IMG/VR virus record: IMGVR_UViG_3300035670_000075
Span: 41,388-105,387 of that record
Reading direction: 5' to 3' (one strand)
DNA length: 64,000 nucleotides
Source: a virus
The notes beneath the pieces were generated by a model. That model was not told the DNA's origin. It did not search any database and worked only from the letters and a program-made list of their open reading frames with translations. Below, in pieces: positions 26,128 to 41,579 of this stretch; the first letter of the stretch is position 1; each line of letters opens with the position of its first letter. Made by a program: the position numbers and the translations under genes.

Positions 26128-26988
26128 ATGAGTTTTATAACTCCACCCATCAAAATCCAAGGACGCAAAACAGCCCTGCTTGGCGAGATAGCCAAGTCAA
26201 TGCCGCAGCGCATCGACGGCATCTACTACGAGCCTTTTCTTGGCTCCGCTGCGGTGGCGGTTAATTTTGCCAATCGCGCCAAACAGGGGGCGAGACTGTC
26301 TGATGCAAATATTTGCATTGCGGAGTTCTATCAAAGTCTAGTTTACGGGCGCGTGTCGCCAATGCACTTCGGTCAACACTTGCTGCACGAAGGCAAGGAG
26401 TTGGCAAGAATTGGCGAGAGGCATTACTACAGTGTACGCGAGCGGTTCAATAGCAACTGCAACGTCAACGAACTTGCGCTTGATTTGCTGTTCCTGAATC
26501 GCACCTGCTACAACGGATTGATGCGCTTCAATCGTAGTGGCGACTTCAATGTGCCGTTCTGCAAAAATCAAAACAGATTGTCAGCTAAGTTTTGCGCCAG
26601 CGTAGAACATTCTGCCGAACAAACGATGGCGGCTTTATCTGGAGGCGAGATTGAGCATTGCGACTGGGAGAATTCAATAAATACCGCTGGCAACGGCGAT
26701 TTTATATTCCTAGACCCACCGTATCTTGGGCTTGAGGCAAATTACATTGCGTCAGGCTGGAGCGAAAAAGACGAAAACGACTTGTACGCCTTCTGTCTCA
26801 ATACGCCAGCGAAATTCATGCTGACAACCTGGGCGGAAAAGCATGGCGGCAAGCCTGCGCGTAATGAGTTCTTCTACTCGCGGTGGGCGAAGAATTTCAA
26901 TGTTCGCGAAGTCGAGCACCAATATATCGTCGGCCCGAAAGCGATTAATCGCGGACGGGTTGTTGAGGCGATTGTTACTAACTACTAA
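26128..26988 (+). CDS. dam: Dam-family (D12 class) DNA adenine methyltransferase
   Basis: K.QGRK, YYEPFLGSAAV, LNRTCYNGLMRFN..G.FNVPF, FLDPPY. Confidence 0.92.
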   Translation: MSFITPPIKIQGRKTALLGEIAKSMPQRIDGIYYEPFLGSAAVAVNFANRAKQGARLSDANICIAEFYQSLVYGRVSPMHFGQHLLHEGKELARIGERHYYSVRERFNSNCNVNELALDLLFLNRTCYNGLMRFNRSGDFNVPFCKNQNRLSAKFCASVEHSAEQTMAALSGGEIEHCDWENSINTAGNGDFIFLDPPYLGLEANYIASGWSEKDENDLYAFCLNTPAKFMLTTWAEKHGGKPARNEFFYSRWAKNFNVREVEHQYIVGPKAINRGRVVEAIVTNY

Positions 26989-26998
26989 CGAGTCAAAC

Positions 26999-28090
26999 AT
27001 GAAATTTACAATCGAAAATCACCTGTTACAAAAAGCCGTCCAAAGCGCAATGAGCGCGATTGAGCGCAAAACAACACTGCCAATTCTCGGCAATATCCTG
27101 CTCAAACTTGAAGGCGGCAAACTTACGTTATTCACCAGTAATAGCGAGCAAGAAGCATCGGTACTTATCGATGATGTTTACGGTGAAGATGGTGAAATCA
27201 CTGTTCCAGCAGAAAAGCTATTCAGCATTTTACGGAGCACAGACAAGCAATCTCATGTCGAGTTTAATCTGAGCGGCGTAAAAGCCAACCTGAAGATTGG
27301 ACGCAGCAAGTTTGTGTTGGCAACGCTGCCAGCGGATGATTACCCATCTGCCGATAGCGGTATTAAATGGCTGGCTGAGTTCGTAATTTCATCCGAGGCG
27401 TTGAAAGCTTGTATGAGCAGAGCGTCTTTCGCAATGGCGCAGCAAGACGTGCGGTACTATCTGAATGGGATGCTGTTTGAGTTGCGCGACAATTTGATGA
27501 CGTGCGTTGCCACGGACGGGCATCGCTTAGCGCTCGCTGGCGCTGATGTAGATAGTACGGCAGAAGTCAGTGTTATCATCCCGCGTAAGATGGTCACTGA
27601 ATTTGTCCGAGTAATTACTGGTGATACTGTGACCGTTCGCGTTTCCAGTAACCATATTCAATTCTCTGTCGGCAACACCACGTTCACCAGCAAGCTGATT
27701 GACGGCAACTTTCCTGATTATCATGGCGTTATTCAAGTTCCTCAGTCACGACCGCTAGTATGTGGTACGGATGCAATCAAATCAGCGCTGAGCCGGGTAA
27801 GCATCCTGTCCAGCGACAAATACAAAGGCGTGCGCTTTAACTTGACGGACGACTCAATCCAGCTTAGCTCCAACAATATTGAGCAAGAAGAAGCAGAAGA
27901 ATTTGTTGTGGTTGAGTACCGTGGCGATGAGATTGAGGTCGGCTTTAACGTCGGCTATCTGCTTGATGCACTCAATGCCGTCGAAACTGAAAAAGTGGAA
28001 ATGCACTTCGGCGACAGCAATAGTTCCATGCTGCTGATGCCTGAAGGTGATTACAGCGTTAAGTATGTCATTATGCCGATGCGGTTATGA
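26999..28090 (+). CDS. dnaN: DNA polymerase III beta sliding clamp
   Basis: TLPILGNILL, FAMAQQDVRYYLNGM, VATDGHRLA, SKLIDGNFPDY, YVIMPMRL. Confidence 0.97.
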   Translation: MKFTIENHLLQKAVQSAMSAIERKTTLPILGNILLKLEGGKLTLFTSNSEQEASVLIDDVYGEDGEITVPAEKLFSILRSTDKQSHVEFNLSGVKANLKIGRSKFVLATLPADDYPSADSGIKWLAEFVISSEALKACMSRASFAMAQQDVRYYLNGMLFELRDNLMTCVATDGHRLALAGADVDSTAEVSVIIPRKMVTEFVRVITGDTVTVRVSSNHIQFSVGNTTFTSKLIDGNFPDYHGVIQVPQSRPLVCGTDAIKSALSRVSILSSDKYKGVRFNLTDDSIQLSSNNIEQEEAEEFVVVEYRGDEIEVGFNVGYLLDALNAVETEKVEMHFGDSNSSMLLMPEGDYSVKYVIMPMRL

Positions 28091-28091
28091 C

Positions 28092-29237
28092 ATGGTTTAT
28101 TACAATGAATTTGACCCCGAAGCTGCGCAATGGCTGCGTAATTTAATCGTCGCAGGGGTGATTCCGTGCGGCGATGTGGACGAGAGGAGTATTGTTGATG
28201 TCAGCCCAAATGACCTTGCCGGGTATGAGCAGTGTCACTTCTTTGCCGGAATTGGCGGATGGGCTTACGCGCTTAGGCTTGCAGGATGGGGAGATTCTAA
28301 CGTATGGACAGGAAGCCCGCCGTGCCAGCCTTTTAGCGCAGCAGGAAAAGGACTTGGCGCGCAAGACGAGCGCAACCTGTGGTACGCATTCTACCGCCTC
28401 ATCCGCGAGTGTAAACCTGCAACGCTCTTTGGAGAGCAGGTTGCGCAAGCAATTGGCTACGACTGGCTCGACACTGTATCGACTGACTTGGAACAAGAAG
28501 GTTACGCGGTCGGGGCGGCAGTATTGCCAGCTTGCAGCGTCGGCGCACCGCACAAACGCGAAAGACTGTGGTTCGTGGCCGACAACCAAAGTGCAGAATC
28601 AGAATGCACCTGGCGAGCACGGCAACGGTGGACAAGACCTTCAGACGGTGGCGGAATATACGAACTGGAGCACGCCGATAGTCAACGACGAGAAGATGAG
28701 TACGCATTGCAACGGCGGCACTCGCAAGGATGGAAGCAAGGCTATATTTCTGAAGCTTCCGGGAATGGCTTAACTCACGACTTGGCCGATAGCGGCAACC
28801 AGAGATTACAAGGGGGGGTATCAAAACGGCAGAATTCGCAACGACAAGTTATCGACAGACGCATTGGATATAACTGCTCAACTCACAATATGGCCGACAG
28901 CCAGATCGACGGATTACAAGATGGGCAAGACCGGAACTGGAGACGGGAGGGAGTTTGCGGACAATCTATGTCAGGCATCCTTGAAGACGGGTCTGACGGA
29001 CTCACTCGCGGATTCTGGAGTAATGCCGATTGGGTGTACTGCCGAGACGAAAAGTACCGCCCAATTGAACCCGGACTTAAGCCGTTGGCTCATGGGGTAT
29101 CCGGTAGAGTGGCTATTGGCAGCGCCGGTAAAACTTATTGGTACACGCGAAAATCAGCGCTCAAAGGATTCGGCAATGCCATCGTACCGCAAGTGGCTGC
29201 GGAATTTATTAAAGCATTCATGACGAGAGACGAATAA
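28092..29237 (+). CDS. DNA cytosine-5 methyltransferase, catalytic (alpha) subunit
   Basis: HFFAGIGG (I), GSPPCQPFS (IV), GEQV (VI), PHKRERLW (VIII), GFGNAIVP (X); motif IX absent from this frame. Confidence 0.9.
   Translation: MVYYNEFDPEAAQWLRNLIVAGVIPCGDVDERSIVDVSPNDLAGYEQCHFFAGIGGWAYALRLAGWGDSNVWTGSPPCQPFSAAGKGLGAQDERNLWYAFYRLIRECKPATLFGEQVAQAIGYDWLDTVSTDLEQEGYAVGAAVLPACSVGAPHKRERLWFVADNQSAESECTWRARQRWTRPSDGGGIYELEHADSQRREDEYALQRRHSQGWKQGYISEASGNGLTHDLADSGNQRLQGGVSKRQNSQRQVIDRRIGYNCSTHNMADSQIDGLQDGQDRNWRREGVCGQSMSGILEDGSDGLTRGFWSNADWVYCRDEKYRPIEPGLKPLAHGVSGRVAIGSAGKTYWYTRKSALKGFGNAIVPQVAAEFIKAFMTRDE
28198..29223 (+). pseudogene. Overlapping-frame beta subunit of the C5 MTase (TRD-like repeats + motif IX), interrupted by TAA at 28771-28773
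   Basis: ORFs 28174-28773 and 28864-29223 share one frame; four W(P/S)(T/I) repeats, then LNPDLSRWLMGYPVEW; start uncertain. Confidence 0.75.
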
Positions 29238-29749
29238 TGAAAGAATCCCCAATCATCTTCTCACCCGCAATGATCGCCGCGCTGCTACGCGGCGACAAAC
29301 ACCAGACTCGCCGCCTGCGCAATATCAATGGCGATATTTTATGGGTGCGTGAATCGGTTTGGATTTACGGAAAGTGGGTAAGAAACGGTGTATCTCCAGA
29401 AGGTAGATATAAATTTAGCTTTAAGGTACACGAAAGCAAACAAGTCAGTTACGACACGCCGACAGGCGCACTGGCTGACAAGATGCTTGGTAATCTCGGC
29501 TGGAAGCATGTGCCGTCGATTCATATTCCGCGATGGGCTTCGCGGATTACATTGCACGTTTCAGAAAGAAGGATTGAACGCTTAAAAGAAATATCCGTTG
29601 CCGACGCTATTGCGGAAGGCATCGATAAAAACGCGGTAGACCCACGCCGCGAATTTGCGCATTTATGGGAACAAATTCACGGACTTGGCGCTTGGGCTGA
29701 AAACCCCGTGGTTCAAGTCATCACTTTCACTGTTAAAAAAGGAAATTAG
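29237..29749 (+). CDS. ASCH-domain protein
   Basis: PIIFS..MI.ALL.G.K.QTRR, LWVRE, PSIHIPRWASRITL, ERL..IS..DA.AEG, W..NP.V. Confidence 0.85.
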   Translation: MKESPIIFSPAMIAALLRGDKHQTRRLRNINGDILWVRESVWIYGKWVRNGVSPEGRYKFSFKVHESKQVSYDTPTGALADKMLGNLGWKHVPSIHIPRWASRITLHVSERRIERLKEISVADAIAEGIDKNAVDPRREFAHLWEQIHGLGAWAENPVVQVITFTVKKGN

Positions 29750-29750
29750 T

Positions 29751-30209
29751 ATGGCGCGCGGATTAAACAAAGTCATGCTCATCGGCAACTTGGGCGGCGA
29801 CCCTGATGTTCGCTCTAGCGCTGGCGGCATGACTATCGCCAAGTTTAGCTTGGCAACAAGCAGTTCACGCAAAGACCAGCAAACAGGTAATTGGATTGAA
29901 GAAACCGAATGGCACCGCGTCGCGCTGTTCGGCAGGCTAGCCGAGGTAGCACAGCAATACCTGCGCAAAGGCTCAAAAGTTTACATCGAAGGACGCATAA
30001 AAACGAATAAGTGGCAGGATCAGGACGGAAATGACCGCTATACCACTGAAGTTATCGGCAATGAAATGCAAATGCTTGATGGTCGTGGCAGTGGTGGCAG
30101 CAGTAGTCATCATGACGACCAAGCATATGAATCGCCGCAGCAACCAGAGCTGCAATCTCAGCAACCGCCTCCAGCGCCTAACGACTTCGACGACGACATT
30201 CCATTTTAA
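29751..30209 (+). CDS. ssb: Single-stranded DNA-binding protein
   Basis: MARGLNKVMLIGNLG.DP...TEWHRV...DFDDDIPF. Confidence 0.97.
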   Translation: MARGLNKVMLIGNLGGDPDVRSSAGGMTIAKFSLATSSSRKDQQTGNWIEETEWHRVALFGRLAEVAQQYLRKGSKVYIEGRIKTNKWQDQDGNDRYTTEVIGNEMQMLDGRGSGGSSSHHDDQAYESPQQPELQSQQPPPAPNDFDDDIPF

Positions 30210-30225
30210 GTTTAAGGAAACACCA

Positions 30226-30711
30226 ATGATCAAGCTTGATGTGAAGATAACCAACAAAGAGTTTTTCGCTGGACGAGACTTGCCAAACTACGCCACACCA
30301 GGCGCAGCGGCAATCGACCTGGTTGCGGCGATTGACAATAAGGTAGTCGTTCGCGGCGGAGCAGTTGAGATTATTCCAACTGGTATTGCCGTTGATATGA
30401 GTAAGCAAGGAACTGCTGACGAGGTTATGTCATTAGCCGCACTGATACTGCCGCGCTCAGGTATTGCCGTCAATCACGGTATCGTGCTCGGCAACTCGGT
30501 TGGGCTGGTTGATTCTGATTACCAAGGCGAAATCAAGGTGGCGGTATGGAACCGCAATATTCCAGGCAGCGGTGATTTTACGATCAACCCCGGCGACCGC
30601 ATCGCGCAAATGACATTTGTGCCAGTTGTGAGTGTGGCACTGAACGTGGTGGACGAGTTCGACTCACAGACGCTTCGCGGTGGCGGTGGGTTTGGGCATA
30701 CAGGGGTTTGA
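30226..30711 (+). CDS. dut: dUTPase
   Basis: PRSG, GLVDSDYQGE, GDRIAQ, RG.GGFGHTG. Confidence 0.96.
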   Translation: MIKLDVKITNKEFFAGRDLPNYATPGAAAIDLVAAIDNKVVVRGGAVEIIPTGIAVDMSKQGTADEVMSLAALILPRSGIAVNHGIVLGNSVGLVDSDYQGEIKVAVWNRNIPGSGDFTINPGDRIAQMTFVPVVSVALNVVDEFDSQTLRGGGGFGHTGV

Positions 30712-40915: not shown

Positions 40916-41579
40916 TTTGTCTCACCACCTTCTTTCTCTTCTGCACATCGGGGTAGCGCAGAATAATTCCATCTAATTCAGTTTCAAATGCCAGCAAGTC
41001 ATCCATTGGTACACTGACTGTTATCTTAGCAACTTGCTCCATATTGTCGCCGCCACCATCGCCACCGAAGTCATTGCCATCACCGCCGAAGCCATCACCA
41101 AATCCGCTGTTTTGCAAACTCGCAAACAACGCGCCAGTGTCAACTTCAAGTGCCTTCAGTGCATCGGAAAAGCCAGCCTCCAACGCACTCAAGTCCCACT
41201 CGCCACTCACACCTGGTAGTGGGTTGTCGAGCAGTAAGATTTGCTCCTCTTGCGCCGGGGTCAGCCCGCTGCACACAACGGCTGGAGCGTGAGTAACACC
41301 CATGTACAGCACAGCATCGACACGCAAATGCCCGGCGCACGACATCAACTTGCCAGTCCTATCTGACAATATCGGCAATCGATTCATAAACAACTCAGGA
41401 GACTGTTTAATCCCCTCTGCGAGATTATGAATCTCTACCTTGCCGTACTTGCGCGGATTGGCGCTGCCATTGACAGATGTATAGGGGACTATCTCTCTGT
41501 AATCAACCGTCAGCAACTCGCACTTGGCGGAAGCGGTTATTACGTCCAAAAGCTGTTTTTCTGTTTTTTGCTGCGACAT
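40902..41579 (-). CDS. ParB/Srx-like protein
   Basis: NPRK, AGHLRV.A, DN....GEWD...L; sits upstream of terS. Confidence 0.7.
   Translation of the reverse strand: MSQQKTEKQLLDVITASAKCELLTVDYREIVPYTSVNGSANPRKYGKVEIHNLAEGIKQSPELFMNRLPILSDRTGKLMSCAGHLRVDAVLYMGVTHAPAVVCSGLTPAQEEQILLLDNPLPGVSGEWDLSALEAGFSDALKALEVDTGALFASLQNSGFGDGFGGDGNDFGGDGGGDNMEQVAKITVSVPMDDLLAFETELDGIILRYPDVQKRKKVVRQSGEE

Follow-up and report, generated by a model that had tools for sequence, protein, structure and literature searches.

The current work describes a putative C5-cytosine methyltransferase gene at positions 28092 to 29237 of the window, the 64,000-nucleotide stretch of viral DNA analyzed here (positions 41,388 to 105,387 of IMG/VR record IMGVR_UViG_3300035670_000075, a virus record of 105 kb). 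Two conserved frames overlap in this gene, and the signs of selection shift from one frame to the other along its length. One of the frames is interrupted by a stop codon of derived state, and whole cassettes of this frame have been gained or lost among close relatives. The gene probably encodes a nested, two-subunit orphan methylase like M.EcoHK31I, in which the second chain (beta) has recently been knocked out or crippled and the methylase is inactive or badly impaired. This reading is built on the sequence and on analogy with a characterized enzyme.

In the proposed mechanism, two chains would be made from one mRNA: alpha from ATG 28092, and beta, in the +1 frame, from its own Shine-Dalgarno (SD) sequence and ATG 28198. 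Alpha would supply the S-adenosylmethionine-binding and catalytic large domain (motifs I-VIII), a disordered linker, and motif X. Beta would supply an N-domain that docks onto alpha, exchangeable W-P-T cassettes, and a motif-IX-like segment. The cassette row would occupy the slot where C5-methyltransferases carry the target-recognition domain (TRD) and would read the DNA; by analogy with M.EcoHK31I, the two chains may assemble into one enzyme. A C-to-T change that turned alpha TCA (Ser) into TTA (Leu) would have made a TAA in beta directly ahead of cassette 3. Full-length beta would no longer be made because of this TAA, and the predicted outcome is a methylase inactivated or strongly impaired through the stop, a fairly recent loss, with no decay so far in alpha or the remainder of beta.

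Organization of the two chains

The gene contains the following elements, in addition to the cassettes and the stop codon.

28092..29237 (+), alpha open reading frame (ORF), 381 aa, ATG 28092 to TAA 29235-29237; motifs I-VIII, predicted disordered centre, motif X
28239-28262, alpha motif FFAGIGGW
28311-28337, alpha motif PPCQPFS
28425-28442, alpha motif FGEQV
28542-28574, alpha motif PHKRERLWF
29166-29198, alpha motif GNAIVPQVA
28182..28189 (+), SD-like sequence GAGAGGAG, 8 nt before the beta ATG, within alpha codons D-E-R-S
28198..28773 (+), beta N-terminal piece in its present form, 191 aa, MSAQMTL...PGMA, closed by TAA 28771-28773
28399..28557 (+), predicted beta N-domain, helix plus hairpin, LQRSLESRLR...LTW..., overlapping alpha motifs VI-VIII
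28774..29223 (+), beta frame behind the stop, 149 open codons to TGA 29221-29223, matching phrog_31772 (5e-12) and phrog_1008 (1e-8)
29062..29112 (+), motif-IX-like segment of beta, QLNPDLSRWLMGYPVEW; alpha-frame reading of these bases, IEPGLKPLAHGVSGRV

Alpha starts one base after the dnaN stop. It scores above the gathering cut-off of PF00145 (E-value 8.5e-24; 85 bits, cut-off 22), contains the catalytic motifs PPCQPFS and FGEQV, and matches phrog_363 (1e-79). Motif IX is lacking, all other motifs were located in frame 0, and the middle of the chain is featureless. In the AlphaFold2 (AF2) model, the predicted local distance difference test (pLDDT) exceeds 80 over residues 1-170 and falls below 50 over residues 182-303, and the C-terminal helix is confident. 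Foldseek aligns alpha to M.HhaI over approximately 169 columns only, about half of this 327-residue enzyme and corresponding to its large domain; a profile search also links the two proteins. The centre of alpha looks like a linker whose sequence is set by the beta frame.

Two open stretches make up the +1 frame, 28174 to 28773 and 28774 to 29223, with the TAA at 28771-28773 as the sole interruption; from 28198 to 29223 the frame lies wholly inside the alpha gene. The duplex of GAGAGGAG with the anti-SD sequence has an energy of -8.6 kcal/mol, compared with a background mean of -3.4 inside these genes; across the family, enrichment of the SD signal at the beta start is only moderate, and an alternative beta ATG is present at 28174. 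The N-terminal piece matches phrog_1008 (2e-22). Both families matched by the +1 product, phrog_1008 and phrog_31772, are labelled DNA methyltransferase, and no match of beta was found in Pfam, NCBIfam, or PDB sequences. Database searches recovered 54 beta homologues at first and later 441, several of which begin with MS.QMTL.

The AF2 model of beta has a mean pLDDT of 54 and values near 40 in the cassettes; neither the cassettes nor the first 64 residues are confident. The N-domain (approximately residues 65-120, block pLDDT 72-93) is one of only two confident parts, and here both frames are constrained in codon-position entropy and substitutions relative to a close relative (sample X4, described below) are beta-silent. 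The segment QLNPDLSRWLMGYPVEW reaches a pLDDT of 74-82 and is the most conserved part of beta, with L, P, W, and L nearly invariant in the alignment and a beta-phase entropy pattern. It resembles motif IX by pattern and is a candidate for the motif that alpha lacks. A preliminary description of this DNA had placed motifs I-VIII and X, with a featureless middle, in the main frame, and four units with a motif-IX-type end in the +1 frame. The former is borne out by the located motifs and the low pLDDT (<50) of the centre; the latter are present as described, to the base.

Conservation of the second frame in homologues

From phage, viral-contig, and metagenome collections, 53 distinct loci with motifs I, IV, and X in one open frame were kept. 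Stops were counted from alpha codon 45 to 25 codons before the alpha end, and the expectation was obtained by shuffling the synonymous codons of alpha, with protein and codon usage kept. Six stops were observed in the +1 frame of the 53 loci, compared with 247 expected; the +2 frame contains 7-42 stops per locus. By region, observed and expected +1 stops were 0 vs 46.8 (motifs I-V), 1 vs 98.5 (to motif VIII), 1 vs 51.0 (centre), and 3 vs 46.9 (near the end). The second frame is genuine: homologues preserve it, and purifying selection acts on it there. The preliminary description had let its idea, a gene split over two overlapping frames in the manner of M.EcoHK31I, depend on conservation of the alternative frame in homologues; the counts above, with motifs I-VIII and X in alpha and a nested conserved +1 frame, support it. 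Both frames are also annotated in the record of phage K1ind3.

Only 3 of the 53 loci have an internal +1 stop: the window locus, L038, and L071. The stops of L038 (alpha codon 158) and L071 (alpha codon 124) both fall in the conserved beta N-domain.

Entropy over the 53 aligned +1 products changes phase along the gene. In alpha motifs I-V, the alpha third base is the most variable, as is seen when alpha is selected and beta residues are free. Constraint on both frames sets in at the beta segment SSASxALQ, and in the cassettes and the motif-IX-like segment the beta third base is the most variable. Substitutions were also read from run X4, which belongs to another study and contains a relative of ~94% identity, among its best-supported differences (32 more are not included). 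Between 28106 and 28370, 13 of 16 substitutions are alpha-silent, and all eight that lie between the beta start at 28198 and 28370 change a beta residue. Between 28383 and 28938, 15 of 17 are beta-silent, most of them altering alpha (Y>H, W>G, R>W, etc.); past 29036 the pattern returns towards alpha. Substitutions switch in situ from alpha-silent to beta-silent at ~28380.

These patterns bear on the view that the +1 frame is a non-coding by-product of alpha composition and that alpha alone methylates. Stop depletion goes far beyond what the protein sequence and codon usage of alpha would produce, and in the centre both substitutions and entropy follow the beta phase. Most annotations call alpha alone, and Pfam finds nothing in the +1 product; that product, however, belongs to a family of more than 400 database proteins and to phrog_1008, and alpha itself has a centre predicted to be disordered and no motif IX. 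A non-coding second frame is scarcely credible on these grounds.

A single polypeptide made through two programmed frameshifts (motifs I-VIII read in frame 0, the cassettes and motif IX in +1, and motif X again in 0) would restore the DNA order of the motifs (I-VIII, IX, X). For such shifts, the +1 frame is stop-free too early, by ~70 codons upstream of the place where the first shift is needed (0 vs 46.8), and it has its own SD and ATG. The alpha frame is in turn open through the whole centre, with 0 stops vs 96.6 expected from beta-synonymous shuffles, a test with some circularity, since an open alpha frame was a criterion in choosing the loci. M.EcoHK31I works as two polypeptides from separate plasmids (PMC2836561). 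Among natural single-chain fusions, the database search returned only P0263, a "fused" protein that is a frameshift chimera without motifs VI-VIII. Programmed frameshifting is very improbable, and two separately initiated chains remain the preferred reading. P0263 itself (423 aa, from a 43.8-kb contig) has an alpha N-terminus that runs into the beta frame at motif IV-V, and may be natural or an assembly error.

Cassettes of the beta chain

Four cassettes and one direct repeat are found in the beta frame.

28573..28662 (+), cassette 1, SWPTTK, SWPTTKVQNQNAPGEHG..., with 9 relatives among the cassettes of other beta chains (positions 1 to 5 of 3-5)
28663..28770 (+), cassette 2, NWSTPI, NWSTPIVNDEKMSTHC...FLKLPGMA, with 14 related cassettes
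28774..28887 (+), cassette 3, TWPIAA, LTTWPIAATRDYKGGYQNGRIRN...AQLT, located behind the stop; found in P0295 but not in P0056
28888..28992 (+), cassette 4 (unit 4), IWPTAR, IWPTARSTDYKMGKTG...
28768..28817 (+), copy 1 of the direct repeat, at the head of cassette 3
28876-28925, copy 2 of the direct repeat, at the head of cassette 4

A total of 612 cassettes of the W-x-T/S type were parsed in 226 beta chains. The same types recur at different positions and in different combinations, so that the four units are genuine cassettes and the word "modular", used for them in the earlier account, is appropriate. The type of cassette 3 is very common (119 of the 612), at first, middle, or last position, and some relatives of cassette 2 occur in chains where the search pattern finds one cassette only. 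No relative of cassette 4 was found among the 612 at 40% of its self score. In the 53 loci, the first pattern counted one cassette in 18, two in 25, three in 7, and five in 2; it undercounts, as the WPIA unit of the window was missed. Database beta chains reach approximately eight cassettes (P0186).

Cassette sets differ even among close relatives, with three architectures among alpha chains 88-91% identical to that of the window. The window has [1][2][3][4]. P0295, with an alpha 89% identical, has these four and a fifth, [1][2][3][4][5]; P0056, with an alpha 91% identical, has the fifth and is without cassette 3, [1][2][4][5]. The fifth cassette is absent from both the window and P0294. At the joint seen in run X4, 113 letters replace 26 at 28977/29004, in agreement with a fifth cassette. 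By analogy, this behaviour fits exchangeable recognition modules such as those of the multispecific Bacillus-phage methylases. A more far-reaching proposal is that each W-P-T cassette is an autonomous target-recognition unit, and that these enzymes are combinatorial and multispecific, with a repertoire that is reshuffled, even between near-identical phages, as whole cassettes are gained and lost, all of it encoded in a frame overlapping the catalytic chain. We put this forward tentatively, as possible but still rather doubtful.

Cassette 3 is the most divergent of the 75 distinct copies of its type (identity to the consensus 0.65, median 0.80), and a C-to-T change that is silent in alpha has given it Ile where 73 of the 75 have Thr. 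Relaxed selection on the cassette is hinted at by this divergence, in a lineage that is also isolated.

The two repeat copies are 50 nt long, 72% identical, and spaced by 108 nt; GCTTAACTCACGACTTGG at 28768 pairs with GCTCAACTCACAATATGG at 28876. A recent tandem duplication of units 3 and 4 was considered and rejected, as the two units belong to distinct cassette types whose heads resemble each other. With direct repeats on either side, 108 nt apart, the stop-bearing cassette 3 could be excised, which would restore an open beta frame.

The nonsense codon and its consequences

The stop codon and the in-frame start candidates behind it, with the free energy (dG) of their SD duplexes, are as follows.

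28771..28773 (+), TAA nonsense codon in the beta frame, formed by alpha TTA (Leu226) and the next A
28864, TTG, dG -0.2
28921, ATG, dG -3.3
29023, ATG, dG -3.3

Beta as now encoded ends after cassette 2 and is without motif IX. The break of the +1 frame at 28771, with GCT TAA CTC where the repeat 108 nt further on has GCT CAA CTC, had been pointed out before and is confirmed. P0056 and P0295, both of the relatives that cover this site, have Ser at the alpha codon of the stop; their beta codon was deduced from the alpha residue alone. Any Ser codon (TCN) at this site leaves beta with a sense codon; for TCA this would be CAA, the codon seen in the paralogous repeat. Because both relatives have Ser where the window has Leu (TTA), the stop is derived and is best explained by one C-to-T change, the same single change that had been proposed from the repeat.

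The record is a metagenome assembly, and the evidence is at the level of contigs rather than reads, so the TAA might be a sequencing or assembly error that hides a sense codon of the real phage. Identical TAA-bearing contigs are nevertheless present in three samples: independent contigs of two further samples (X2 record 13 and X3 record 19) cover 28771 without a difference. P0294, a database protein from another contig, also has Leu at this alpha codon. Such an error has little chance of being the explanation. Recoding of TAA as a sense codon was likewise considered and rejected: the genome is without tRNA genes, hence without a suppressor, and TAA closes 16 of its 54 long ORFs, alpha included.

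A more substantial, though unlikely, alternative is that the enzyme still works. Beta would then be supplied as two pieces, 28198-28770 and a product restarted from TTG 28864, ATG 28921, or ATG 29023, or else through low read-through; the pieces and alpha would form a three-part methylase, perhaps with a reduced cassette set. None of the three start candidates is backed by an SD sequence: their dG values of -0.2, -3.3, and -3.3 compare with -8.6 at the true beta start, and the GGAG before ATG 29023 is only 2 nt away from it. The earlier suggestion that beta is trimmed to its last TRD by a downstream restart finds no support in such weak or badly spaced ribosome-binding sites. Read-through is disfavoured by the codon itself, as TAA is the stop least prone to it, and no suppressor tRNA is encoded. 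Cassette 3, moreover, looks relaxed. A restarted piece would be without the N-domain, and N-terminal deletions of M.EcoHK31I beta weaken its association with alpha (PMC2836561).

Several points favour a working enzyme and weigh against an inactivated one. Alpha is intact, 149 codons of the beta frame remain open past the stop, and the four listed X4 substitutions there, all in cassette 4, are beta-silent. From the open frame and these silent changes it follows that the loss is recent or else that the C-terminal piece remains in use; the X4 silent-site pattern cannot date the mutation, because it integrates over the whole divergence. Fragment complementation is known for several C5-methyltransferases, which can reassemble when split, and M.AquI is naturally split (PMC3404938). 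In M.EcoHK31I, internal Met codons of beta gave active shortened chains (PMC2836561). On other grounds, the three TAA-bearing samples all come from one study, and contigs can hide minority alleles. PF00145 scores the motif-IX-like segment in none of 44 beta chains, and the likeness to M.EcoHK31I is drawn from its published layout. With these points taken into account, a recently disabled beta chain remains the probable reading.

As a side remark, a C-to-T change on the + strand fits both 28771 (TCA to TTA) and 28784 (ATA, Ile, where the consensus has Thr); deamination of 5-methylcytosine is expected to leave this signature.

Comparison with known methyltransferases

According to the accounts in PMC2836561 and PMC3404938, M.EcoHK31I (E. 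coli HK31, YGGCCR; Lee, Kam and Shaw 1995) consists of an alpha chain with motifs I-VIII and X plus a nested beta chain with motif IX, both of which are needed, and the N-terminal part of its beta matters for alpha binding (PMC2836561). The present gene is similar in that the large chain has motifs I-VIII and X without IX and the second chain is nested in another frame. It differs in that beta nearly spans the alpha gene (341 codons if read through, compared with 381) and is broken by TAA. The predicted TRD of M.EcoHK31I is described in its alpha chain, whereas here the cassettes and the selection signal are in beta; the alpha centre has a pLDDT below 50, and its variation follows the beta codon phase. 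Unlike restriction-modification systems, this orphan gene, part of a phage replication block, lacks a restriction gene beside it.

The multispecific C5-methyltransferases of Bacillus phages, M.SPRI, M.Phi3TI, M.Rho11sI, and M.H2I (Wilke et al. 1988 and Lange et al. 1991, as cited in PMC8936443), were compared by description only. As described there, they too are phage orphans with short variable modules in tandem in the target-recognition slot, and the sets differ between related phages. They are, however, single chains with all motifs in one frame and with each TRD shown to confer one target. In the window, the modules lie in a separate chain of an overlapping frame, with the cassettes in beta and motifs I-VIII and X in alpha. 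M.AquI (CYCGRG) is a natural two-chain split within or around the variable region; its beta has motifs IX and X and its genes are not described as nested (PMC3404938), whereas here motif X is in alpha and the overlap is full. The closest parallel in layout is the homologous locus of Kagunavirus K1ind3, ORF30/ORF29 ('C-specific methylase'/'Mte8-like protein', GU196281.1), in which a +1 ORF of 265 aa lies inside a 309-aa methylase gene; it differs by its two cassettes, uninterrupted beta frame, and ~46% alpha identity.

The nested two-chain design (M.EcoHK31I), tandem TRDs (SPR type), and the natural split (M.AquI) are already known. Specific to the window are the nonsense allele with its derived state, the three cassette architectures at 88-91% alpha identity, and the silent-phase switch in situ near 28380. 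Within the literature searched, the nested design is documented for one E. coli enzyme only, and at least 8,000 sequence clusters in the database belong to the catalytic chain of this phage type, for which most annotations call one gene. If the overlapping chain does carry the recognition cassettes, specificity predictions for a large part of the phage cytosine methylases use the wrong polypeptide. Coding in overlapping frames would also constrain the evolution of specificity to whole-cassette insertions and deletions in multiples of three. A natural beta knock-out allele, together with close relatives that have intact and differing cassette sets, offers a ready comparison for the roles of the partner chain and its cassettes.

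Genomic neighbourhood and unusual homologous loci

The methylase gene sits inside a tightly packed replication block, with the following neighbours.

26128-26988, D12-class N6-adenine methylase (PF02086, 2.5e-32), two genes upstream of the C5-methylase
Reading frame closing at 28090, DnaN clamp, directly before the C5-methylase gene
29237-29749, phrog_874 protein, 170 aa, function not assigned, directly after the C5-methylase gene
29655-30209, SSB-like protein, judged from its sequence in the ORF listing
30031-30711, ORF without assignment

No nuclease family, and hence no candidate for a cognate restriction endonuclease, was found among these neighbours, of which the 170-aa protein remains unassigned. 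With the D12-class adenine methylase and the C5-methylase, at least two orphan methylases lie within this replication block of the phage. No related phage or plasmid was found for the 20 kb around the gene by megablast against deposited phages and plasmids. No close DNA match to the locus was obtained from viral contigs with the exact pattern around the stop, or from metagenome, genome, and viral collections in the related-locus search.

A transfer-messenger RNA gene with the tag ANDERYAVAA* was detected by ARAGORN at G000:C1:38578-38914, ~2.5 kb upstream of the window start. It could be phage-borne, or it could be the host ssrA flank of an integrated prophage.

Two homologous loci depart from the usual layout. 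In L016:1501-2900 (contig of L059 and L107), alpha stops after the cassettes, and the alpha C-terminal sequence FWSDCDWLPCRDGK... is carried on in the +1 frame; just before GRLRAYGNAIVPQVA there are ~140 additional codons that include CxxC pairs. This arrangement could reflect a frameshift together with an inserted element or domain. In L018:1501-2300 (contig of L054 and L106), 44 codons of what was a methylase N-terminus, MNYYNEIDKFAAQWLRNL..., are found ~0.75 kb upstream of a second copy, which is complete and begins with MKKWNYYNDTDPF; the fragment looks like a leftover of gene replacement or duplication.

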